The notes beneath the pieces are model-generated. The model saw nothing but the letters and a program-made list of their open reading frames with translations. It was not told the origin of the DNA and did not search any database. A DNA stretch of 64,000 bases from a virus, in IMG/VR virus record IMGVR_UViG_3300017971_000203; one strand, given 5' to 3'. Numbering within the stretch: position 1 is the first letter of the stretch; the number at the start of each line of letters is the position of its first letter. The position numbers were made by a program, and so were the translations under genes. Positions 10,330 to 53,735 of this stretch are shown piece after piece.

Positions 10330-10856
10330 GGCCGAGCATCCTTGGAAGCCTGCACTGAGCTCCACACGAACTCCGCCTTGGCCCGGTTACATCCTAGCCT
10401 CTGCATGCACACAGCGACGCTTTTTTCGCGGTCGTCCCCGATCATGTCGAGGAGCTCCCTCCGGGACAGTCCGAACTCCGCCATACCTTCCTGAATGGAC
10501 GCCTCACGATCCTCCAGTTGGGCGACCACTTTCTTCATGTGCTCGTCGACGGGGTTCGAAACGCGGGGCACCTCGAGCTCCTGGACGAGCTCCGAGAGCC
10601 ACTCATCGTCAGGCAAAGTGTCCCGATAGCCGGCGACGATCTCTTCGGTGCTGTAACCCGGAGGAACGGCGCACCAGAGCGCCACTTTGGCCCGACTGAC
10701 ATCCCTATCGGTCTCGAGCCGCCAGACCTCTCCGGTCCACTCGGCGTAGCACAGGGCGTAGTTCGTGATCACCAGGGATTCGTTCATCTTCACGTAGGCC
10801 AACAGGCGAAACCCCGCCAGGGGCCGGTCCTTGAAGGTCTTCCAGTTCAGCTGCAT
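10326..10856 (-). CDS. Hypothetical protein
   Basis: 176-aa ORF; SD GGAG. Confidence 0.65.
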   Translation of the reverse strand: MQLNWKTFKDRPLAGFRLLAYVKMNESLVITNYALCYAEWTGEVWRLETDRDVSRAKVALWCAVPPGYSTEEIVAGYRDTLPDDEWLSELVQELEVPRVSNPVDEHMKKVVAQLEDREASIQEGMAEFGLSRRELLDMIGDDREKSVAVCMQRLGCNRAKAEFVWSSVQASKDARP

Positions 10857-11440
10857 TCTTCTGTCTCCTTTTCTTTCAGAGCCCTCTGAAGGGTGCCCCT
10901 CGGGATGCCTAGGAGCTTGCTCACTTTCCGTTGGGAGTAGCCCTTGCCAAAGAGCTCTTCCACGGCTTCTAGGTCGGTCTCTACCCTGGGACGCCCGACG
11001 TGTGTCCCGTTGGCCTTAGCGTGCTGCATACCGGCCTTGACCCGCTCCCTGATGGTGTCGCGTTCGAACTCGGCGAAGGCGGCCACGATGGTGAAGAACA
11101 TCTTTCCGGCGGCACTGGTCGTGTCGATGGTCTCCCGGAGGGACACGAAGTCGACGCTGTGCTCCTGGAAGGTCTCCAAGGCGGTCACGAGCTGCCGTGT
11201 GCTCCGGGCGAAGCGGTCGAACTTCCACACAAGGACTACGTCCAGCTTCCCGGTGATCGCATCCTTCATGAGCTTGTCGAGCGCCTTCCTGGAGGCCTTC
11301 GCACCGGAGACACCTTCGTCGACGTACTCCCTGTGCTTCCAGCCGTTGAGCTCCACGTACTTGCGGAGCTCCTCAAGCTGCATCTCGACGCTCTGATCCT
11401 TCGTGGACACCCTGGCGTAGATCCCGGCCCGCTTTTTCAT
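10847..11440 (-). CDS. Small serine recombinase (resolvase/invertase) with C-terminal HTH
   Basis: YARVST..Q...Q, DEGVSG, VWKFDRFARS, AEFERDTIRERVKAG, GRP, HTH. Confidence 0.95.
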   Translation of the reverse strand: MKKRAGIYARVSTKDQSVEMQLEELRKYVELNGWKHREYVDEGVSGAKASRKALDKLMKDAITGKLDVVLVWKFDRFARSTRQLVTALETFQEHSVDFVSLRETIDTTSAAGKMFFTIVAAFAEFERDTIRERVKAGMQHAKANGTHVGRPRVETDLEAVEELFGKGYSQRKVSKLLGIPRGTLQRALKEKETEECS

Positions 11441-14106: not shown

Positions 14107-14369
14107 GTCGTCTCCTCGTAGTGGCGGGGCCTCCGCCCCTGCAAACTCGAAAGCTCAAGCGGGTTACGAAGTCGTCTGTGGCCGCAAAGGAAGAGCGGTG
14201 CCCCGAGTGGAACTGGATATCGAGACCGCCGCGAAAGGTGCTGCCCATGACGATTCTGTGTGTGTCGTCCCAGTAGTGGACCCGGATGACATCTTCAGGA
14301 TCCGGGGCCTCAGTGAACTCGAGAGCCGAGAAGCCCTGAGACAGCTCTCTCCAGCGGAACGTGCCCACA
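14087..14369 (-). other. Cassette 14, terminal module in the continued linker frame
   Basis: ...HRIVMGSTFRGGLDIQFHSGHRSSFAATDDFVTRLSFRVCRGG... in ORF 14087..14998. Confidence 0.7.
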
Positions 14370-14583
14370 TCACCCCCGTGCGATCCGGAAGCCGACATCG
14401 CTGCCTGCTCCGATCTGGTGTTCGTCGAGGCGTCCATCGTGCTCGAGGAAGTCTCGGTCGTGGGTGCGCACGTAGATGACATTGTTGTAGCAGAAGCCTT
14501 TGAGGAGGGACTTGTAGGAGGCGGTCCGGGGCCTCGGTCCGTTCCCGAGGGGCCAGGGGTTCGGGATCTCAGGCCAAAAGTGG
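14370..14583 (-). other. Cassette 13, placed in 0 frame by a 1-nt insertion in its heptamer (CC[A]CTTTT)
   Basis: HFWPEIPNPW...LLKGFCYNN...SDVGFRIARG*. Confidence 0.8.
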
Positions 14584-17405
14584 CGGCGATCACCCGTAGC
14601 AGATCCGGAAGCCGACGATGTCGTGAGGACTCCCTGGGTAGAAGTTCTCGTCGTGGTAGTAGTTGGTCCGCTTGTGGAGAGTGCCGTCGCTTCTGTTCCG
14701 GTCCCACCAGGACCCGCCCCGGAGACTCCAAAAGGGCGGGGCTCACCCCCAGCAGATCCGGAAGCCCGTGAAGAAGATGCCACGTGGTCGGAGGCTCCCG
14801 TTCCGTCGTCCGAGATGGATCCGGAGAGCGTTCGTGAAGCGGGAGTAGCACTCGCCTCTTCGAACGCGGCGCCGAAAGGGCGCTTACCCTCTGCAAACCC
14901 GGAATCCGATGATGTAGAGCTTTCCTGTGATTCTCCATACCGTGCTGCATCTGCCGAGGGGTTGGAAGTCCTCTGAGAACCACGAGTTCCCTCGGCACCT
15001 GCTAAAGGGCCCCTACCCCCAGCAGATCCGGAAACCTTTGCCCCAGGAGTTGTCGGCGAAAGGTTCGGAGTCACGCTTCGCGACGCTGGCGACACCTCTG
15101 AAGAGGCTGCTGGCGAAGCCTCGCCCGGTCTTGGCGACAGGGAAGACGAAGTGTCGAAAGGGCGCTCAAGTACCTCCGTCGGATCGGACGATCCGGAATC
15201 CGAGCAGCTTGTCGGACATGGTTGTGAGCCCGGTTCCCCGGGCGTTGAGACGGAGGGAGACCGCGGAGCCGCCCCCTCGACAGATCGGGATCCAGACAAA
15301 GGGCGGCGCTCACCCCCAGCAGATCCGGAAGCCGGCGCTGGTCCAGTCCCCGAACTCACGCCCCTGTCTTCGGCGGGATGCGGAAGGCTGGAGTCGCATC
15401 CAGGACCCCGCTCGGACGACCCGAAAGGGACAGCGTCCTCCTCATCCTCGGCAGATCCGGAATCCGCGCCGCTGGTGGGCCCAGCTTCGTCGTGGGGAGA
15501 AGCACTTCCCAGACAGTCGCACGCGCGCGTAGACGGCGTCGAAACACCCTCCCCGGGGCTTGCCATACGGCTCCCGCCAGGGCTCCCCGGAAAAGGGTGA
15601 TCACCCCCAACAGATCCGGAAGCCGATATGATGGGCCCGGGTCCACATGGTGCGGGGGGTCTTTCTCCCGGGTCGCAAATTGTGGGGAGGGTACGGGTGT
15701 GCTGCATCGAGCCATGCGCCCCCTCGGAGGAAGCGGTCCCGAGGAAAGGGTCAGGAGTGTCCTCCTCGACAGATCCGGAAGCCCCAGCGGCCGGCTGCTC
15801 CTCTTCCGTATCCTCTGATGGAGAGCCGTCCGAGAGCGGGGGTAAAGAACTCGATGAGGTAGATCCCCCGCTCCCCGAGTCGAAAGGGCGATCAACCTCG
15901 GGCGATTCGAAAACCCTTACCAAATGAGGAGGAGGCGAAGGGCTCGGATGACCGCTTCGCGAGGCTGGCGACGCCCCTGTAGTAGACGCTGGCGAAGCCC
16001 CGCCCGACCTTGGCGAAGGGGCTCGGTCCTCGAGCGACCCGGTCGGCCTCTGTGGTCTCTCCCCAGGGACGAAAGGGCGGCGATTACCCCTGGGATCGGA
16101 CGATCCGGAAGCCGAGGAGCGTCCCCTTGTACTCGGGGTAGCTCCCAGGGCCTCGGTGGGCGATCCGGGCTCCGTGACCAGAGGAGAGTTCCCTGAACAA
16201 GCGTCCGCCTCGGAAGTTGGCACTTCGAAAGGGCGCCGTCTACCCCCGGCAGATCCTGAACCCTGGTCGAACGGTGTAGAAGACGTAGGTCTCGAGCTCG
16301 ATGTACCAGGACTTGAAGCCCTCGGGGTGTTGGTTCCCGAGCCACTCGCGGCGGGACAATCGGAGGGGTGGGTCGGGGTAGAAAGCGCCGCGGAGAGTGA
16401 GGGATCGCCGTGCCCAAAAGGGAGCTCAACCTCGGCAGAGCCGACGCCCTCGGGGTCCGGCTCGGGCGTCTGGGACGAGGCTGAGTCTGGAGAGGGGCAG
16501 GGGCCAGTCGAGAGAGGAAGTCGTTCGATCTCGAAATTGACCTCCGCGGGCTCTCCGCGCTGGTGCCGTTTCTTCGACGTCACCTGCCTCATGGGAGGGT
16601 CCGGCTTCTGCTCCGCCATAGTGATGTCGGGCTTCGCGTGCTTCATGTGTTCGGCGTATTCGTCCCAGCACCACTCCCAGACGTTCCCCAGGCAGTCGTA
16701 GAGGCCCCACCTGTTCGGAGCCAGCTGCCGAACCGCATGAGTCCGACCATCTGAGTTCTGGTCAAACCAGGCGATCTCTTCCAGAGACGCCTCGCGCCAC
16801 TCGACTTCGCCACCACACCGGTCGCACACCCCAATCTCGTACCGCGCACCGTCGCTGCCCGCCCTGGCGGCGTACTCCCACTCCACCTCGGACGGGATCC
16901 GGAAGCCCGGGCCCTCCTTCCACAGGTAGCCCTGCTGGCGGTCCCCGATGTACGCGGGCGGTAAACCGCAGCGCTCCGAGAGCGCGTTGCAATACTCGAT
17001 GGCGTCGTACCAGCTCACGCACTCCACCGGGCGCTCGAGAGGATTGTCGCCCTGCTGGAAGTGGCTGGGGTTCTTCCCCATCACCGCTGCGTACTCGGAC
17101 TGCGTGACCGGCGCAGAAGCCATCCAGTACGTGTTCTCGATCGTCACCTCGATCTGATGCTCGTTCCGCCACCGACCATCTTCGTCCGGCGGACTGCCCA
17201 ACACGTCCGTACCGGCAGGGATCTCCACCAGCTCCGGGATCACAACGCCCTCCAGACGTGCGAGGTCAAGGCGCGCGAGCACGTCCCCTCCCCGGCTGCG
17301 AAGCCGCAGGAACTCCCGGAGAGCCGCCTCGTCATTGTCCACCGCCAGCTTCCCCAAGCGCTCGAGCTGCCGCACGTTGGTCGTTGATTCTCTCGTTGTC
17401 TCCAC
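14370..17405 (-). CDS. FGE-sulfatase (SUMF1/C-type lectin fold) protein, 0-frame product with long Ser/Gly/Pro linker; parent of frameshift isoform array
   Basis: Motifs IPAG..LGSP, PVTQSEY, PVECVSWYDAIEYCN, RIPSEVEWEYAARAG, PNRWGLYDCLGNVWEWCWD; ends VGFRIARG*. GTG start at 17405 follows SD GGAGGGG. Confidence 0.93.
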   Translation of the reverse strand: METTRESTTNVRQLERLGKLAVDNDEAALREFLRLRSRGGDVLARLDLARLEGVVIPELVEIPAGTDVLGSPPDEDGRWRNEHQIEVTIENTYWMASAPVTQSEYAAVMGKNPSHFQQGDNPLERPVECVSWYDAIEYCNALSERCGLPPAYIGDRQQGYLWKEGPGFRIPSEVEWEYAARAGSDGARYEIGVCDRCGGEVEWREASLEEIAWFDQNSDGRTHAVRQLAPNRWGLYDCLGNVWEWCWDEYAEHMKHAKPDITMAEQKPDPPMRQVTSKKRHQRGEPAEVNFEIERLPLSTGPCPSPDSASSQTPEPDPEGVGSAEVELPFGHGDPSLSAALSTPTHPSDCPAASGSGTNTPRASSPGTSSSRPTSSTPFDQGSGSAGGRRRPFEVPTSEADACSGNSPLVTEPGSPTEALGATPSTRGRSSASGSSDPRGNRRPFVPGERPQRPTGSLEDRAPSPRSGGASPASTTGASPASRSGHPSPSPPPHLVRVFESPEVDRPFDSGSGGSTSSSSLPPLSDGSPSEDTEEEQPAAGASGSVEEDTPDPFLGTASSEGAHGSMQHTRTLPTICDPGERPPAPCGPGPIISASGSVGGDHPFPGSPGGSRMASPGEGVSTPSTRACDCLGSASPHDEAGPTSGADSGSAEDEEDAVPFGSSERGPGCDSSLPHPAEDRGVSSGTGPAPASGSAGGERRPLSGSRSVEGAAPRSPSVSTPGEPGSQPCPTSCSDSGSSDPTEVLERPFDTSSSLSPRPGEASPAASSEVSPASRSVTPNLSPTTPGAKVSGSAGGRGPLAGAEGTRGSQRTSNPSADAARYGESQESSTSSDSGFAEGKRPFGAAFEEASATPASRTLSGSISDDGTGASDHVASSSRASGSAGGEPRPFGVSGAGPGGTGTEATALSTSGPTTTTTRTSTQGVLTTSSASGSATGDRRHFWPEIPNPWPLGNGPRPRTASYKSLLKGFCYNNVIYVRTHDRDFLEHDGRLDEHQIGAGSDVGFRIARG
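14590..14736 (-). other. Cassette 12 (-1 frame, CCCTTTT)
   Basis: PFWSLRGGSWWDRNRSDGTLHKRTNYYHDENFYPGSPHDIVGFRICYG*; canonical RGGSW...GFR. Confidence 0.92.
14743..14880 (-). other. Cassette 11 (-1 frame, CCCTTTC)
   Basis: PFRRRVRRGECYSRFTNALRIHLGRRNGSLRPRGIFFTGFRICWG*. Confidence 0.87.
14884..15009 (-). other. Cassette 10 (-1 frame, CCCTTTA)
   Basis: PFSRCRGNSWFSEDFQPLGRCSTVWRITGKLYIIGFRVCRG*. Confidence 0.87.
15013..15162 (-). other. Cassette 9 (-1 frame, CCCTTTC), paralog of cassette 3
   Basis: PFRHFVFPVAKTGRGFASSLFRGVASVAKRDSEPFADNSWGKGFRICWG*. Confidence 0.87.
15166..15303 (-). other. Cassette 8 (-1 frame, CCCTTTG)
   Basis: PFVWIPICRGGGSAVSLRLNARGTGLTTMSDKLLGFRIVRSDGGT*. Confidence 0.85.
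15310..15429 (-). other. Cassette 7 (-1 frame, CCCTTTC)
   Basis: PFRVVRAGSWMRLQPSASRRRQGREFGDWTSAGFRICWG*. Confidence 0.9.
15442..15597 (-). other. Cassette 6 (-1 frame, CCCTTTT)
   Basis: PFSGEPWREPYGKPRGGCFDAVYARVRLSGKCFSPRRSWAHQRRGFRICRG*. Confidence 0.87.
15601..15750 (-). other. Cassette 5 (-1 frame, CCCTTTC)
   Basis: PFPRDRFLRGGAWLDAAHPYPPHNLRPGRKTPRTMWTRAHHIGFRICWG*. Confidence 0.9.
15751..15888 (-). other. Cassette 4 (-1 frame, CCCTTTC)
   Basis: PFRLGERGIYLIEFFTPALGRLSIRGYGRGAAGRWGFRICRGGHS*. Confidence 0.85.
15892..16077 (-). other. Cassette 3 (-1 frame, CCCTTTC)
   Basis: PFRPWGETTEADRVARGPSPFAKVGRGFASVYYRGVASLAKRSSEPFASSSFGKGFRIARG*. Confidence 0.87.
16084..16233 (-). other. Cassette 2 (-1 frame, CCCTTTC)
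   Basis: PFRSANFRGGRLFRELSSGHGARIAHRGPGSYPEYKGTLLGFRIVRSQG*. Confidence 0.87.
16240..16422 (-). other. Cassette 1 (-1 frame, CCCTTTT)
   Basis: PFWARRSLTLRGAFYPDPPLRLSRREWLGNQHPEGFKSWYIELETYVFYTVRPGFRICRG*. Confidence 0.85.
16426..16599 (-). other. Cassette 0 (-1 frame, degenerate entry CCCTCCC)
   Basis: PSHEAGDVEETAPARRARGGQFRDRTTSSLDWPLPLSRLSLVPDARAGPRGRRLCRG*. Confidence 0.55.
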
Positions 17406-17422
17406 CGTCCCCTCCGTTGGTC

Positions 17423-27925: not shown

Positions 27926-30004
27926 CTACTCCCTGAATCCGAACTTACCCCGGAAGATGGCGATCATGAGCGCGAAGAGCTCGGGGTCCTTCTCGTGCAG
28001 CTCCCGCGCGTGCTCCTTGTCCTGGAAGTGCTGGAGCCCCATAGAGATCACCTCGGACACACGATGCTCCTTGTAGATCTTCCCAATGTAGCTGCTCGAA
28101 AAGTCGTCCGGGACACTGATCTCACCGCTCCTGAAGCCTACGCACTTCTCGTGGTCCATCAGAGTTACCGTAGGCTGCCCTTTGGTTCGCTTCTCCAGGA
28201 AGTACGCTGTGGCGTCCCCCAGGCACCCGTTGCTGTATTCGAGGTAGTGCCCCAGCTCGTGCATCATCACCCGGGTAGCCGCTTCTTCGGATCCCCAGTT
28301 GTTGATGTCGATGTTGGGGTCGGCGGTGTGAGCCGTGGCGCAATGCCCTCGGCCCCTCTTTCCCTGGATCCGTACAGTGGCCTCCACGGCTTCCGGGGAT
28401 ACCTTCGAAACCACCCGACGTTTCGCATACGCTGGACCCCAAGCACCTTGCGGAACGAACTTCGACACGAGGTCCAGCCCTGTACGAGCTCCGCTCAGAC
28501 GCTCCCCATGCAAAGAAGAATCGAACTCGACCTTGTGTGGCAGTTTCGACTTCCCCCTGGCCACCAACTGGTCATACAGATGATCCACCGCTTCGCCGGC
28601 GCCCTTCTTCGTGACCAGGCGCTGGATGGACTTCTCCGTCTCGGCCATCTGCTGGTGATAGGCATCGGGCTTCAGACGCTTCTTGTACGTCGCTTCCTCC
28701 TCCCAGTCACGGGCACGCCGCGCACGGCTTGCTTCACCCGCTTCGGCAGCATTCCGCATTGCATCGCCGTCCTCGATGTACCTCTGGATCTGCTTGAAGT
28801 CCGGGGGACCATCGTCGTCCCAGCCCCACGGAGGCTTGAACATATCGATGAGCTTCTTCTGGATACCCCGAAGAACCGCGTCGCTCTGGTTGCTGTAGAC
28901 CGCATACTCGGTGAACTCGTCGTCGCTCATGAACTGGCTCATGCGCTCCGAGAGTGCACGACGCACCTCGGGCCGATGAGTGACCTGGAACCAGTTGTAG
29001 GCCGCCCCCTTCGAGTCCTTGGCCTTCTCTTTCTTCATGGACTTGATCAAGCCGTCGAACTTGTCCTTGAGAACGCGATCAATCCAGTTGCGACCAAAGA
29101 GCCCTACGACAGCCTGACCTACGGGAAGAGAACGCGGATCATTGACGATCTTCCGAAGAGCCTCGAAGCCACCAGCCTCCTTCATGACCTTGTGCAAGCG
29201 ACGAATGTTCGTTCTCTTGTCCGACTTGTGGTAGCCGCCCTGGCTGAAGTTGTAGTTGTGGACGTCCACGTAGGGCTCGAGCAGCTTGAACAGACGATCC
29301 GACGCCGTCGTCATCGGGGTGTTGTCCACCAGACGAGTGGTCTTGCCCTGCCCGTGCTCCAGGAAGAAGTCCATCGCCTTCTCCCAGCCCCCGCCGAAAA
29401 AGGTGCGCATCTTCGACCGGGCCTTGTCGCTGGACATGATGAGAGCCCGGGTAGCGTCCGCCTCCGCCTTCGTCTTCGATGACGCCGTGAGGGCCTTGCG
29501 CAGATCATGCGATCCGTAGGCGTTGTGGAACCTCTCGAGCTCAGCACCCTTCCCGACGACGGAACGCCAGTGCTTACCAAAGTGCTCCGAAACAGCCCTC
29601 AAGATCTCGGGGTCTCCCTCGATGCTCTTGATCATCTCCTCGGAGCCCCGGCGCTTGCGCCAGTTGTCCTCCGGCTCCGCATACCAACGGAGCTTCTGTA
29701 TCATCTCCGTAGCGGACTCCGCATCCGTCCCCTCGAAGCGAAACAGACGCCTGGCTACCTCGGCGTTCTTCGGCTCCTTGCCCTGGAGAGCCTTCGGAAC
29801 ACCCAGCATCGTGCCGTCCGGCTTGATGAGAACACGCCGGTTGAACTTCCAAACCCAACGACCATCCTTCACCTCCGCGTCGTCCTTGTCGAACTTCGTG
29901 TAGTACGTGTCGTAGTCACCCTTCGGGTCACGACCCGTCACCTTGTTCACCCACTCCGAACGAAGACGGCGACCCTCTCGAACCAAGCGCTTCAACGACG
30001 GCAT
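27926..30004 (-). CDS. Large protein with C-terminal HEXXH metallopeptidase-like domain
   Basis: MMHELGHYLE ... YIGKIY...SEVISMG; SD GGAGG. Confidence 0.75.
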   Translation of the reverse strand: MPSLKRLVREGRRLRSEWVNKVTGRDPKGDYDTYYTKFDKDDAEVKDGRWVWKFNRRVLIKPDGTMLGVPKALQGKEPKNAEVARRLFRFEGTDAESATEMIQKLRWYAEPEDNWRKRRGSEEMIKSIEGDPEILRAVSEHFGKHWRSVVGKGAELERFHNAYGSHDLRKALTASSKTKAEADATRALIMSSDKARSKMRTFFGGGWEKAMDFFLEHGQGKTTRLVDNTPMTTASDRLFKLLEPYVDVHNYNFSQGGYHKSDKRTNIRRLHKVMKEAGGFEALRKIVNDPRSLPVGQAVVGLFGRNWIDRVLKDKFDGLIKSMKKEKAKDSKGAAYNWFQVTHRPEVRRALSERMSQFMSDDEFTEYAVYSNQSDAVLRGIQKKLIDMFKPPWGWDDDGPPDFKQIQRYIEDGDAMRNAAEAGEASRARRARDWEEEATYKKRLKPDAYHQQMAETEKSIQRLVTKKGAGEAVDHLYDQLVARGKSKLPHKVEFDSSLHGERLSGARTGLDLVSKFVPQGAWGPAYAKRRVVSKVSPEAVEATVRIQGKRGRGHCATAHTADPNIDINNWGSEEAATRVMMHELGHYLEYSNGCLGDATAYFLEKRTKGQPTVTLMDHEKCVGFRSGEISVPDDFSSSYIGKIYKEHRVSEVISMGLQHFQDKEHARELHEKDPELFALMIAIFRGKFGFRE

Positions 30005-30172
30005 CACAACCTCCACGTGGTCGACAGTGAAGAGCATAGTCCAAGGCAAAGACCGTGTCAGCAACAGAAGGCCCTCAACGGCTTGAACAGGAGTACCCCT
30101 TCTGTACGTACACAACTGTCCCGGCGGGTGGGAGTGGGGTGAACCCACGGGAGAACCCCTGCGATAGACTCG

Positions 30173-30296
30173 ATATAAGTCAGTCGGATTGTCAAGGTTC
30201 CAGATCCTGGATCTCATTCTGTCGGGAGCAGAGCTCGGGGAGGGAGGAACCACGACAGGTTCCCTGCTCCATATAGGTCAGTCGGATTGTCAAGGT
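30173..30296. repeat. Direct repeat pair ATATA(A/G)GTCAGTCGGATTGTCAAGGT (tandem TTGACA elements on - strand)
   Basis: Copies at 30173-30198 and 30271-30296, 1 mismatch. Confidence 0.8.
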
Positions 30297-30887
30297 CCGA
30301 GATCACTGATCAAATTTCGGAGGGTGCGGGGCCGAGAATAGGAGAGGAAAGCTTCACGAAGCGGAGAGATCTGGCAGGAGGCCCCCTACCCTAATCTTGA
30401 GGGTCGGGAAAGTGTTGCACTGCGCGGACTTGCGGGACCGCGGGAAGTTGGCGTAGTTCGCCATTTTGCGGCGGCCGGAAAGTGGCGAATACCAACAGTT
30501 TCCGCGGGCTTAGGTCGCAACAGTTCAACCGTGTTCACAACTGCAGGACCGTGCCAGGGAGCTGGACTAAGATCGTGCCAGGTTCGGTGTGTGGAGAGAG
30601 AAAAGTGCATGCGTTGGGGGTGGCCCAAAAGGGTGCCCCTCGGCGGGTCTCGGATCCGACGCCATAGCTCAAGGCTGCCTGGCCCACAAGGCCGGCCCAG
30701 AAGTGGCCCACAAGGTAATGGTTCTGGGCCGTCTGTATGTAGGTCCGGCTCGCACCCAGCTTGGTCACTGCTTGGTCGCTCCCCCATAGGAGCCCGTACC
30801 CCCAATCTTGGGGATGCTGGTCTAGTTGCTCCTCGGACCCGGTTCGGTTACTGTCGTTCCATACTACTGTAACCCAGGGGGCGAATC

Positions 30888-31185: not shown

Positions 31186-31779
31186 CTAGAGGTCCTCGGG
31201 GTTGGGCAGCATGACGGCCTTGGTCTTGCCCCCTGCCTTCCACTGGACCTTCTTCCGCTTGGCTGCACGGCGGCGCTCTGACTCGGCCTTACGCAGCTCC
31301 CTCTCCTCGGGCGTGACCGGCCATCTCCGCTGGTAGTCCGGGCTTCTCACGCGCCGTAGCCAGGCGTAGCAGATGCTTTCCAGGTCCCCCATGTCGAGCT
31401 CGCCTTCCTTACACAGGGTGCGGACTTCCACGTTCGTGACAGCCAGGAGCTCCGCCACCATGGCGATGCCATACCCCCACAGCTTCCGGGCCCCCACATT
31501 CGGCCCTGCTGGGAGGTCGATTTCGTTGACATGGACCTTCGCCCGGACCTTCCGAAAATTTTCCAACGAAAAAATGTGTCCCGAATCTCGGGCTTTCCCA
31601 CCCTTCTGCACTACATTCCCACCCTTCTGCACTACATTCTCACCCTTCTGCACTACATCACCGACCCCTTGCACTACACCCCCACCCTGTCCGGTCTCTT
31701 CCTGAGACACCTGTTTTGACCCTTCCAGGTGGTCTGTCTCCCTGGTCTCATCCCCTTCCACGGTGCGCCTTTCGTCCAT
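31186..31779 (-). CDS. HTH protein with 7-aa repeats
   Basis: VVQKGGN-type repeats x4; IAMVAELLAVTNVEVRTLCKEGEL. Confidence 0.65.
   Translation of the reverse strand: MDERRTVEGDETRETDHLEGSKQVSQEETGQGGGVVQGVGDVVQKGENVVQKGGNVVQKGGKARDSGHIFSLENFRKVRAKVHVNEIDLPAGPNVGARKLWGYGIAMVAELLAVTNVEVRTLCKEGELDMGDLESICYAWLRRVRSPDYQRRWPVTPEERELRKAESERRRAAKRKKVQWKAGGKTKAVMLPNPEDL
31597..31680. repeat. 21-bp tandem repeat (~4 copies)
   Basis: Unit CCCACCCTTCTGCACTACATT. Confidence 0.85.
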
Positions 31780-47018: not shown

Positions 47019-47843
47019 TCAAGGGGAAGGGGCCCACGGCTCGAAGCCGCCGGTGATGGTCCAGAGGTCCTTGGCCTCTTCGTCCATGATGTGCTCGGGG
47101 GAAGCGTAGAAGAAGCCTCGGTGCCCCCAGTTCTTCCCCCAGCTGTTCGCGATCACGAAGCAGCCGCCCTTGTGGTCGTGCAGCCAGCCCACGATGGTCA
47201 TGGCGTGGCGGCCGACGATCCGACCCTCACAAGCCCCCACGACCGAGTGCCTGTCCACGTTGAAGAAGTTCTTGTTCAGCGCGGTCCCGTAGATCACGGG
47301 GTTGCCGGCGTGGAGGTGCAGCAGGACATCACTCACCCGGTCGTGCCCGGAGCTGATGATCCGGTGGTGGCTCGAGATCTTGTGAAGGGCCGCCTCGCGC
47401 AGGGCTCGCATCGGAGGCGTGTGCTTGAACTTGTCTGGGTCGTAAGGCCAGGTCTCTTCGAGGCATACCCCAATCTTGCGTAGGGCGTCACAGGCCACGC
47501 TGATGTGGGTACCGCTGTCGAGCTGCGTCTTCGGCGGGTCCATTCGGGCCCGGGCGATGAAGTACAGATGCAGCGTCGACAAGTCCCTGTGCGCATCCCG
47601 TCCGTGTTCCTGGATCCGCTTGAGCTCGTTCGAGAACGCGAGTGCCTGAGCTACACACGACCCGAGGCGCCGCTGGTCCTGGATGGGACTGCAGTACTGC
47701 CGCAGGTCGGCAGAGCCGAGGTCACTCCACCACGAGGCCCGGTCTCCACCCACCTCGAGCAGCAGGCTCGCCTTGAGCGCGTCGTTGGTCCAGTGCTCGG
47801 CCTTGATGGGCTCGGGCATGTATCCGTCAAGCTTCGGTGTCAT
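47019..47843 (-). CDS. Papain-like C1A cysteine peptidase
   Basis: QDQRRLGSCVAQA, GRHAMTIVGW, IANSWGKNWGHRGFFY. Confidence 0.92.
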   Translation of the reverse strand: MTPKLDGYMPEPIKAEHWTNDALKASLLLEVGGDRASWWSDLGSADLRQYCSPIQDQRRLGSCVAQALAFSNELKRIQEHGRDAHRDLSTLHLYFIARARMDPPKTQLDSGTHISVACDALRKIGVCLEETWPYDPDKFKHTPPMRALREAALHKISSHHRIISSGHDRVSDVLLHLHAGNPVIYGTALNKNFFNVDRHSVVGACEGRIVGRHAMTIVGWLHDHKGGCFVIANSWGKNWGHRGFFYASPEHIMDEEAKDLWTITGGFEPWAPSP

Positions 47844-48090
47844 TGTCGTCTCCCTATGATGTAGTCGTCGTTGGTTGTCGCCTGACAGGACTCGGGCCGA
47901 ACAATCCCCAGCGGCCAGTAGCTCGGAACAACATACCACTGGTAGCCAGAACGGTCGCAGTGGGTTCGAAAGCGCCGCCCACAGTCACAGAAAAGGCGCT
48001 GCCCCACATGGAGCACCGCACCCTCCGCCACGAGCGGCCTCCCGCAGTAGCACTTCAGGACCTCCGGTTCGACCTTGAACTCGATCACGA

Positions 48091-51139: not shown

Positions 51140-52315
51140 CAGTCCTCGTCTTCGGGAATGACCTCGTACTCGGCGCCGCACTCCCCGCAGTACTCCTCCC
51201 CGGTCCCCCACTCGAGCTCGATGTGGGAAGCCGAGCAGCAGTCGCAGATCCACTCATTGCAGTCGAGGCACCGCCGTACACCGGACTCGTTGCAGAACGC
51301 GCACTCGTGCACGGGCTCTTCCGGCTCGGTGGCAGGCTCGGGCATATCCACCTTGGCACCGAGCGCCTGTGCGAGCAGGGCGTGGAGCATCGGCACCATG
51401 TAGGGGCGCGTTGCCACACCGCGGGCATCGCTCTCGAGGAGAGCCTTGACCTGCGCGGCGATCTCATCGATCTCGTCCACGCCGGACCCGTAGGGTGCAT
51501 CCATGTTCGAGCACTGACACTCGAACCAGTTACCGCCGCACGCCGAGCACTCTTTCTGTTCCCACGTCATCTCAGTCTCCTGCCGGCGCCGCAGGGCACC
51601 GGACATCGGTCAGGGCCATTCGATGTGGATGATCTCCCCGAACTCGATCGGGGTGTCGGGCCCGATCACGACCGGGGGCTTGTCCGCCGAAGGCACCAGG
51701 CGGAAAGACCCGTTCGGGGCACGGTACTCCCCGTTGGGCCCGGGGAACGAGTTCCCGGGGCGGGACTGGTAGACCCGACACAGCTCGGGGTCGCCGCCGT
51801 CGACCTTGCAGACGTGCAGGTCGCCGTTCCCCAGGAACTGGGCCGGACGGACGGTGAGGATGGTGTTGAAAGCGTTGAGTGTGTAGGTGTTGTCGGTCAT
51901 CGTGTTCCCCTCCGTTGGAACGGTGAACGCGCCGAAGCGCGTGGAAGAGCTCAGGACCCGAGGGCCACCTGAGCGATGAGGTGGGGGTTGCGGGCCCCCG
52001 CGGCAATCGCCTGGAGCGCGAACGCCCGGACACGGGCATCGAGAGCCTCAGCGTCGCCGTGGAGCCGGTTGGCCGCGTCGTGGCGGCCCTCGGAGCCCTC
52101 CCGGACACCCTTGGTGCGCAGGAGCATGATGGCGCGCTGCAGGTGCAGCACGGTGGTGTGTGTGACGCTGACGCGGTCCTCGTGCGCGTTCATGATAGCG
52201 ACCGCGACGCAGTAGACGTCGTTGTTGCGGGTATTGGCGACGATGGTGGTGTCGGTAGTAGCGTTCATGGTGTGTCTCCCCTCCGTTGGAGTGTTCGCCG
52301 CGTCAACTGAGGCTA

Positions 52316-52367: not shown

Positions 52368-53267
52368 TCACCGCTTTCTCTTCCAAGTGCGCATTTTCAC
52401 TACGTTCGACACGGTCGTCCAGTTGACGCCGAAGGCCAGGGCGAGGTTGCTGATGAGCATCCCCTCCTTGTGGCAGCGTCGGATCTCGTCCACGTCGTCC
52501 CAGGTGAGCTTCGCCCGGCCGTGACGCTCCCCGGAGGCGTTGCGTCGGTTCTTCACGCGCTGCTCGAGGGCTTCCTTGTAGGTACCGGCCCGCAAGTGTC
52601 TCGGGGTGACGCACCAGGTGTTGCCACAGGCGTGGTAGACGACCTGCCCCTTCTCGAGGCGCCCGACAAACATCTCATAGGAAGCTCGGTGGGCCCGGGG
52701 ACGGTCTCCGTCCACCCGGATGAACTCCCCGAAGCCGTCCCGGCTCAACGAGAGAGGCCAGCGGCAGCAGTCATTGAGCCGCAGAAACTGCCCCTCCTTC
52801 TCCGGGTCCACTCCGATGATACCGAGGAACTTGCGACGGTTCCGGTCTTTCAACCACAGCACCGCTTCCAGGACCTCTTTCTCGTGCACCTGGTAGGCGT
52901 AGTGTGCCCAGTCCATGCTGCAGCGGGCGCGCTGGGCTATCTCGACCACGTCCGCCATGTCGATCTTGATGGGCCTTCGGGGGAGCTTCGGAGGCGTCCG
53001 GTACGTCCACGGGGTCGGCAGCCCTCGGATGATCCGCTGCTTCTCGGCTCTGGGGAGCCGTTTGAAAGCGTACTCGGATCGTAGCGCTTCACTCTTCGTC
53101 CCACACTTCTGCGACCACACCAGCTTCACGGGGCGCCTCGAGCGGGTGTACTTCGCGCCCCGCTTGGCTGTGTTGTGAGCCTCTGTGCGTCGGATGGGAT
53201 CAGTGCTCACCCCGGCGTAGTAGGTTCCGTCCCGGCACAATAAAACATATAAGTACCAGTCCTCCAC
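52368..53267 (-). CDS. GIY-YIG nuclease fused to HNH-like domain and HTH
   Basis: WYLYVLLCRDGTYYAG...RGAKYTR; RAHRASYE...HACGNTWCVTPRHL; GERHGRAKLT. Confidence 0.85.
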   Translation of the reverse strand: MEDWYLYVLLCRDGTYYAGVSTDPIRRTEAHNTAKRGAKYTRSRRPVKLVWSQKCGTKSEALRSEYAFKRLPRAEKQRIIRGLPTPWTYRTPPKLPRRPIKIDMADVVEIAQRARCSMDWAHYAYQVHEKEVLEAVLWLKDRNRRKFLGIIGVDPEKEGQFLRLNDCCRWPLSLSRDGFGEFIRVDGDRPRAHRASYEMFVGRLEKGQVVYHACGNTWCVTPRHLRAGTYKEALEQRVKNRRNASGERHGRAKLTWDDVDEIRRCHKEGMLISNLALAFGVNWTTVSNVVKMRTWKRKR

Positions 53268-53735
53268 AGCGTCCTCACGGAGCACAGGTGACGACGTAGA
53301 ACCGGAGCGCGAAAATGCCCACGATGATCAAACCGTAGAAGAAGAGCACGATCGCAGCTTCTCTGAACAAAGCCTTCCGCGGCCGCTTCATGGTTCAGCC
53401 CTCGTCGATGAAGAGGTCCCTCAGCTCATCCCCCACTTTCGTGAGAGCGTAGCAGACTTCCGTTCCCGGCATGGACAGCTTCGCCGCAGCACAAACCTCG
53501 TCGTAGACCCGCCGCACCCCCTCCTGGAAAGCGCCCCGGGGGTCCTGCGCCGTGGGAGCCTGGTTCACGTCTTCGCCCCAGTGCCCCACGCTCAGGTCCG
53601 GGTGGTGCTCCTCTTCCAGGTCCTTGCCGTCGAGCAAGTACTCCTGGACGAGGGCTTCGGGAGCGGTGTCGTTGGCGTTGATGAGCCCGTACTCGGACAT
53701 CCACCTGGCGAACTGCAAGAGCGTGTCCCTCTCGG

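Follow-up and report, generated by a model that had tools for sequence, protein, structure and literature searches.

A probable phage gene with twelve tandem cassettes in the -1 frame, candidates for serial frameshift exits, and evidence of purifying selection in the hidden frame of cassettes 3 and 9

The stretch of 64,000 nucleotides (nt) analysed here, the window, belongs to the IMG/VR virus record IMGVR_UViG_3300017971_000203. Its minus strand carries a gene that begins with a truncated FGE-sulfatase/C-type-lectin-like domain and continues into an array of twelve cassettes, which are encoded in the -1 frame relative to the gene and start each at a potential slippery heptamer (Table 1). Cassettes 3 and 9 are the only place in the locus where selection in the hidden frame is directly measurable, and the evolutionary case for the -1 modules being made as protein depends chiefly on them. 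All evidence presented is computational and comes from this one locus.

The gene and its truncated domain

The frame-0 open reading frame (ORF) codes for 1011 aa. The ORF listing spans 17591-14370, the GTG at 17405 being the likely gene start. Four nt upstream of this GTG stands the 12-mer CCAACGGAGGGG (17405-17420, minus strand). It is present five times on the minus strand of the window, with the other copies at 52289, 51918, 12537 and 3181, and is probably a common translation-initiation or regulatory leader of the genome.

The family PF03781 matched ORF residues 119-323, and a full-length domain in one frame was not found, positions 205-255 of the family being absent. The frame-0 fold ends at the strand WEWCWDEY. 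Usual relatives continue after WEWCWD with RVxRGGSW...RxAxR...P...GFRxVR, and frame 0 of the cassette gene lacks such a continuation. When a profile of the 13 cassettes was compared by hhalign with 17 aligned single-domain FGE proteins, it matched the last ~40 columns (242-280 of 284; E 2.6e-6, probability 89%), and cassette 5 alone matched PF03781 positions 214-253 (E 0.0015). Because both matches fall on this part of the fold, the cassettes are read as alternative versions of the piece absent from the frame-0 domain. Individual Pfam scans of the 14 modules gave a match for cassette 5 only (1 of 14) and none for the orphan fourteenth module.

AlphaFold2 (AF2) modelled residues 1-240 of the frame-0 product confidently and residues 242-1002 as disordered; the last ~10 residues (GFRIARG) formed a short strand with a predicted local distance difference test (pLDDT) score of 73-81. 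The model is consistent with a terminal strand docking back on the domain across the linker, a weak support in view of the MAFFT alignment, which had split the C-terminal piece of the homologues across the linker. Ahead of the FGE domain, residues 1-51 (17250-17400, minus strand) comprise three predicted helices with an RL..L...GD..A..L-like pattern, which are kept in the close relative P0132 (see below). At 16560-16640 (minus strand) frame 0 reads ...KKRHQRGEP..., and MAFFT pairs RHQRGE with the RVxRGG of usual FGE proteins; the pairing may reflect the relic of a C-terminal piece that was once in frame, or be an artefact of the alignment.

Table 1 Features of the cassette gene and family matches in the window
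Feature	Position	Strand	Remarks
Frame-0 ORF	14370..17405	-	start GTG 17405, end TGA 14372-14370
Truncated FGE-sulfatase/C-type-lectin-like domain	16623..17237	-	PF03781 positions 3-204 of 255, E 2.6e-37
Array of 12 cassettes, -1 frame	14590..16422	-	each starts CCCTTTN and ends ...GFR(I/V)xxG-stop
Heptamer first C, cassettes 1-6	16422, 16233, 16077, 15888, 15750, 15597	-	
Heptamer first C, cassettes 7-12	15429, 15303, 15162, 15009, 14880, 14736	-	
Cassette 2	16084..16233	-	tail LLGFRIVRS, contiguous with cassette 3, common to cassette 8
Cassette 3	15892..16077	-	CCCTTTC 16077-16071, 61 codons + stop
Cassette 8	15166..15303	-	tail LLGFRIVRS, contiguous with cassette 9
Cassette 9	15013..15162	-	CCCTTTC 15162-15156, 49 codons + stop
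Cassette 13, frame 0	14373..14583	-	ends the gene with GFRIARG-stop
Orphan 14th module	14130..14257	-	RIVMGSTFRGG...SFRVCRGG; +1 frame, past the gene stop
Serine recombinase	10847-11440	-	Pfam; ~3 kb from the array
Papain-family (papain-like) protease	47019-47939	-	Pfam
GIY-YIG + HNH homing-endonuclease-like ORF	52368-53285	-	Pfam

The cassette array and its heptamers

The cassettes have a length of 39-61 codons without an internal stop in their own frame, and the array as a whole, 1833 nt or 610 frame-0 codons, has no stop in frame 0 either. All twelve start with a CCCTTT whose phase makes it C_CCT_TTN in frame 0, the canonical X_XXY_YYZ heptamer, and only six other CCCTTT were present on the minus strand of the 64 kb. 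From the -1-frame stop of a cassette to the next heptamer there are 0-12 nt. CCCTTT is kept perfectly at every junction, the cassette bodies being ~50% identical, and the invariant glycine of GFR is encoded by all four GGN codons. A Shine-Dalgarno (SD)-like GGAGG, GGGGG, GAGGT or GGGGT, scored by sequence presence only, begins 10-17 nt upstream of each of the twelve heptamers. The stretch before heptamer 1 (16423-16446, minus strand; …GCCGAGGTTGAGCT) is similar to the tail of a cassette: it has the SD-like GAGGT and a TGA in the -1 frame, yet no cassette precedes it. The presence of the SD-like run at this first site, where a preceding cassette is missing, suggests that the run may be retained for its own sake.

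Cassette 13 is reached without a shift, and its heptamer is the sole degenerate one (CCACTTT, 14583-14577). Given this degenerate site at 14583 and the +1 frame of the orphan module, the sequence fits a one-base insertion which may have moved cassette 13 into frame 0. The orphan module is more canonical than most cassettes. Cassette 3 has a 19-residue leader (16021-16077, minus strand) that is absent in cassette 9; it contains an internal CCC TTC (…GPSPFAK…) at the point where the cassette-9-type body begins. A heptamer may once have stood here, or a cassette may have been lost and left this trace.

Selection by frame in cassettes 3 and 9

The original prediction for this DNA had aligned cassette 3 with cassette 9 and claimed purifying selection in the -1 frame. 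Both peptides quoted for the pair were found exactly, one base behind the minus-strand ORF. The gap-free block comprises 126 nt (cassette 3, 16020-15895; cassette 9, 15141-15016; minus strand) with 35 differences, an identity of 72%, and an independent repeat search returned the same pair as a 139-nt direct repeat of 72% (15004-15142 and 15883-16021). Within the best 60-nt window cassettes 3 and 9 are 82% identical, every other cassette pair at most 55%. In the -1 frame, 17 codons of the block are identical, 13 differ by synonymous changes only and 12 by a change of the residue. The ten synonymous codon pairs that had been listed are all present, together with three more (ccc/cct, tca/tcc and ggt/ggg).

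The ratio of non-synonymous to synonymous substitution rates (dN/dS) after Nei-Gojobori, which had been proposed as a check in all three frames, was low for the pair in the -1 frame only: 0.355 (dS 0.72, dN 0.25) with 30/42 residues identical, compared to 1.03 with 19/41 residues in frame 0 and 1.49 with 18/41 residues in the +1 frame. The Fisher test of synonymous versus non-synonymous counts had P=0.011. The codon bootstrap of the -1 frame ratio had a 95% interval of 0.11-0.91, with 1.6% of the replicates at or above 1. With the 35 substitutions re-placed at random on cassette 3, the -1 frame kept 20.7±2.05 identical residues; 30 were observed, a number that none of 20,000 trials reached (P<5e-5), and frame 0 and the +1 frame were slightly less conserved than under random placement (P=0.94 and 0.96). 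The claim that the -1 modules are expressed as protein thus gained moderate support, in that the -1 frame of the pair evolves like a coding sequence and the other frames do not.

The changes cluster in a small number of multi-hit codons. These are VYY/SLF behind the RG motif, S/D, SS/DN and F/W between the proline and GFR, and AR/CW behind GFRI. Part of the identity excess is due to this clustering. By analogy to the lectin-fold proteins targeted by diversity-generating retroelements, the variable segments would be expected to face the ligand. Transitions account for 16 of the differences and transversions, of all kinds, for 19. The differences are not adenine-restricted, as had been stated: adenine is the base of cassette 3 at 6 of the 35 sites and that of cassette 9 at 10 of the 35.

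The tail LLGFRIVRS is, as reported earlier, carried by both cassette 2 and cassette 8. Similarity between the two regions reaches from the last ~27 nt of cassettes 2 and 8 through the junction and the heptamer to the ends of cassettes 3 and 9, with a 36-nt indel in the leader of cassette 3; the bodies of cassettes 2 and 8 were not alignable as DNA. This confinement to the tail plus cassette 3 or 9 shows a single duplicated or converted segment, about 190-230 nt long. Growth of the array by duplication, a further claim of the prediction, was shown for this one segment. It was not evident for the other pairs, which have ~50% DNA identity and a common origin detectable only at the profile level.

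Frame 0 as a probable linker

Frame 0 had been described as changing freely without gaining a stop. No stop was present in cassette 3 or 9. This is uninformative as regards the pair, because frame 0 remained open in 48% of the random substitution sets too. The codon usage was more telling. Leucine is encoded in the cassettes by CTC 28 times and by CTG twice, with CTG at 8 of 20 in the N-terminal domain of the same gene; the corresponding counts are GTC 17 and GTG 1 for valine (N-terminal domain, GTG 12 of 17) and CCC 26 and CCG 4 for proline (N-terminal domain, CCG 9 of 14). The third position is C in 51% of the cassette codons and in 37% of those of the N-terminal domain. A third-position C of the cassette frame is a second-position C in frame 0, therefore the frame-0 residue is Ser, Pro, Thr or Ala. 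Frame 0 of the array consists to 67% of S/P/T/A/G, with 55±1.7% under the null, and to 11.5% of hydrophobic residues, with 21.3±1.5% under the null. For cassettes 3 and 9 the S/P/T/A/G share is 73% in both, and random substitution gave 62-66% (P 0.02 and 0.12).

Judged by these counts, the codon bias exceeds stop avoidance, and the anomalous trait is the codon usage of the cassettes, not the openness of frame 0. Selection of frame 0 only to stay open, as originally suggested, did not hold, as the composition looks like that of a translated flexible linker instead. From its sequence, frame 0 looks translated and kept both stop-free and linker-like (flexible, non-sticky, PAS-like, i.e., Pro/Ala/Ser) by the strong synonymous-codon bias, and the AF2 disorder agrees with a linker. 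Such a constraint would also bind the synonymous sites of the -1 frame and depress dS; the true constraint on the modules is then probably stronger than a dN/dS of 0.36 implies.

Proposed serial frameshifting

We consider it fairly likely that one gene, probably of a phage, gives rise to many versions of a lectin-like binder by -1 frameshifting at twelve serial sites. Cassettes 3 and 9 would be diverged copies of a translated module that corresponds to the last ~40-60 residues (RGG...R..R...P...GFR) of an FGE/lectin-like fold. The frame-0 product would carry the fold up to WEWCWDEY, and the C-terminal piece, which faces the ligand in relatives of the fold, would be supplied twelve times in the -1 frame. 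At C_CCU_UUN a ribosome reading frame 0 may slip by -1, translate the cassette concerned and terminate, and a ribosome that does not slip would pass the cassette in frame 0 as a Ser/Pro/Thr/Ala/Gly-rich linker to the next exit. Cassette 13 in frame 0 would be the default ending. One mRNA could thereby yield up to 13 proteins with a common body and different tips, each tip folding onto the body across the linker and the tips binding different ligands. Selection would have kept the scaffold residues of the -1 module, with change concentrated in few multi-hit codons.

The wider proposal stands at even chances in our estimate: a translational diversity generator with 13 hard-coded ligand-facing tips, from which the ribosome would choose by serial -1 shifts, with dual-coded DNA between the exits. 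Cassettes 3 and 9 would represent a library that evolves by duplication followed by diversification of the ligand contacts under scaffold-preserving selection, a counterpart of the diversity-generating retroelements (DGRs) free of reverse transcriptase. If true, a set of binders with different tips would be obtained from one gene with the DNA unchanged, a route to breadth that is distinct from DGR mutagenesis, invertible tail-fibre segments and cassette recombination. The dual-coding signature, one frame conserved in sequence and the other in composition, could serve to find more such genes, and the serial sites would be a natural test bed for the tuning of frameshift efficiency by heptamer variants and SD spacing.

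Several results weigh against serial frameshifting. The evidence for purifying selection is of moderate strength, the dN/dS being derived from a single pair of 42 codons. With the seven tail codons common to all cassettes (GFRIxxG) left out, dN/dS was 0.44 with an interval of 0.125-1.35 that spans 1. The match of the cassette 3/9 pair alone to the FGE C-terminus was weak (hhalign E 0.014, probability 3%, over A.R...P...GFR). RNA folding 3' of the heptamers, where a stimulatory hairpin or pseudoknot would lie at a distance of 5-9 nt, was overall not better than that of shuffles (z -2.8 to +1.1); sites 4, 9 and 10 fold better than the shuffles (z -1.9 to -2.8), the other sites range from -0.8 to +1.1. 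For late exits the module would have to dock over as many as ~650 linker residues. The openness of frame 0 was marginal for the array: a synonymous shuffle of the pooled cassette codons had a mean of 2.0 frame-0 stops and was stop-free in 8.8% of the trials, and permutation of the codon order within each cassette had a mean of 1.9 stops and was stop-free in 9.7%. Both nulls are somewhat liberal because the +1 frame, taken as control, is also short of stops (4 versus 9-10 predicted by these two nulls, P 0.016-0.038). These two nulls retain the abnormal codon usage of the cassettes; synonymous resampling from the usage of the window (22 long ORFs), by contrast, gave a mean of 7.4 frame-0 stops and not one stop-free trial in 3000. 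The original prediction had named shuffles that frequently leave frame 0 open as the outcome contrary to it, and this was the outcome obtained, openness alone being not significant (P 0.088-0.097).

Other explanations of the array

Tandem, diverged partial copies beside an expressed gene are known from Borrelia vls and Neisseria pilS, and the array could likewise be a silent library: the cassettes, not themselves translated, would serve as donors for copying or recombination into an expression site, and the -1 frame would be under selection via occasional expression after recombination. Such a library would agree with the tandem, co-oriented cassettes and the repeats conserved at their junctions (36-mers, identity up to 97%), with the nearby serine recombinase gene and with a conversion tract as the origin of the similarity between the cassette 2 tail plus cassette 3 and the cassette 8 tail plus cassette 9; purifying selection in the cassette frame is also predicted by it. 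We hold it to be unlikely, however. An in-frame acceptor cassette directly after the truncated domain is missing, and the in-phase heptamers, the PAS-like stop-free frame 0 and the skewed codons are left unexplained. Different from vls and pilS, the cassettes lie inside the gene's own transcript and ORF, each behind a slippery site, and no variation between contigs was seen: the gene product is unchanged on five public contigs from three sources, where it is called from an upstream GTG with 1029 aa, and no joints in the array were seen in the assembled contigs of two DNA runs, whose identical 35,829-nt contigs are possibly one data set and the source data, and so carry no information on variants. 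Recombination at the junctions, or any other route at the DNA level, would still leave a frame change needed, because all junctions are in one phase. A shufflon or an inversion system of the Gin/Cin/Hin type does not correspond to the locus, all cassettes being co-oriented and inverted repeats being absent within the array.

Decay is a rather improbable origin of the array. In this case tandem duplication and frameshift mutations would have left the cassettes behind as dead pieces of the C-terminus, with the pattern of cassettes 3 and 9 due to chance or a mutational artefact. Twelve independent frameshifts would then all have needed the same phase. The perfect CCCTTT at every junction despite bodies of ~50% identity, the open cassette frames, the 0 of 20,000 random placements that matched the residue identity, the use of four codons for the glycine of GFR and the layout retained in a 60%-identical relative all speak against decay; in favour of it are the lack of an own Pfam match for most cassettes, the orphan fourteenth module outside any reachable frame and the bootstrap interval that spans 1 once the tail is removed. 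A change to the -1 frame, equivalent to +2, could in principle also arise at the RNA level, and transcriptional slippage, RNA editing or a +2 shift at CCCTTT would then bring the cassettes into frame. Known polymerase slippage takes place on runs of at least 6-9 A/T. The CCCTTT run is too short for it, and the motif, with its exact phase, corresponds to the canonical X_XXY_YYZ site of tandem slippage; we regard these recoding routes as very improbable. The G-rich SD-like element 10-17 nt upstream of each cassette could finally indicate internal initiation, each cassette being a separate small gene. No ATG, GTG or TTG is in frame at the cassette starts, which all read CCC TTT, and the peptides of 39-61 residues would represent only the last part of a fold; we regard separate small genes as extremely improbable.

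Comparison with known systems

With the -1 frameshift genes of bacteria and phages (dnaX tau/gamma, IS3-family orfAB, lambda G/GT and T7 gene 10A/10B) the cassette gene shares the zero-frame X_XXY_YYZ heptamer and, if serial frameshifting takes place, the alternative C-terminus from one mRNA; the upstream SD-like element is shared with dnaX. These known genes have one exit, whereas the cassette gene would have twelve in succession, each to a different version of the same module. Its zero frame overlaps the modules between the exits and reads as a linker, and no consistent downstream RNA structure was predicted. The heptamer CCCUUUN did not appear in the text of the review of Atkins 2016 (PMC5009743). 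Many obligatory shifts per gene have been described for mitochondrial genes, with 10-12 shifts, and for Euplotes (PMC5009743). These cases resemble the cassette gene in the number of recoding sites, but all their shifts are needed in series for one product, and each shift in the cassette gene would be an optional exit to a different product.

Diversity-generating retroelements act on variable proteins of the FGE/C-type-lectin fold (PMC5758913). The fold and the variation of a C-terminal, ligand-facing segment are alike, but the variants of the cassette gene are hard-coded and would be chosen at translation. No reverse transcriptase family (RVT) was detected among the 35 ORFs of at least 230 aa of the 64-kb window, which is part of a genome of >150 kb, and no copy of any cassette resembling a template repeat (TR) was found elsewhere in the window. 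The adenine-only pattern between TR and variable repeat (VR) was not found in cassettes 3 and 9. Overlapping, dual-coding genes are alike in that both frames bear signs of constraint, here one in its sequence and one in its composition; in the cassette gene, however, the second frame is a low-complexity linker of the same polypeptide and not a separate protein. In the full-text literature searched, neither serial exits by alternative frameshifts nor any frameshift in a gene of the FGE/lectin fold was described. The candidate serial-frameshift design is best seen as undescribed, with the pair of cassettes 3 and 9 as one measurable piece of evidence.

Relatives and genomic setting

An exhaustive HMMER search of 1.84 billion representatives revealed one close relative, P0132, with 60% identity, from a 5,781-nt contig of a Logan assembly and known here from its protein only. 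It is truncated at the same WEWCWDEY motif. Its tail is rich in Ser and Thr, with PF at 251, 313, 369, 409, 478 and 581, i.e., every 40-103 residues, and it ends with an in-frame RAVRGA...GFVRS piece. Close homologous loci were not found in viral contigs with the N-terminal domain or an alignment of the two family members as queries, and the DNA pattern of a GFRI tail, CCCTTT and the next GFRI had no match in viral contigs. In metagenome and genome contigs the same pattern matched once each at 27 loci; three or more tandem GFR-stop modules were present at none of them, and these loci were dismissed as chance or ordinary FGE genes. The pattern GFRIC(R/W)G-stop had one match (L028) in an unrelated high-GC coding sequence, which was regarded as chance. 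Searches of phage records by tblastn retrieved only distant FGE domains of ~35% identity in Microcystis phages and others, and cassette 9, compared with longer proteins by a word-based search, had no match.

Contigs with the gene reach 153-220 kb and originate from sediment and seawater metagenomes. Their size would fit a large phage as the putative carrier of the gene. Most ORFs around the gene are without a Pfam family. In addition to the matches in Table 1, the window contains a Bro-N/anti-repressor-like protein and, with a weak match, a head-maturation protease. At 31574-31678, where the sequence looks intergenic, four to five tandem 21-nt repeats (TTCCCACCCTTCTGCACTACA) were observed, which are possible iterons or operator repeats. 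Direct repeats of 66 nt (30169-30234 and 30267-30332), 76% identical and 98 nt apart, are located at the 5' end of a 775-aa ORF (27926-30253, minus strand).

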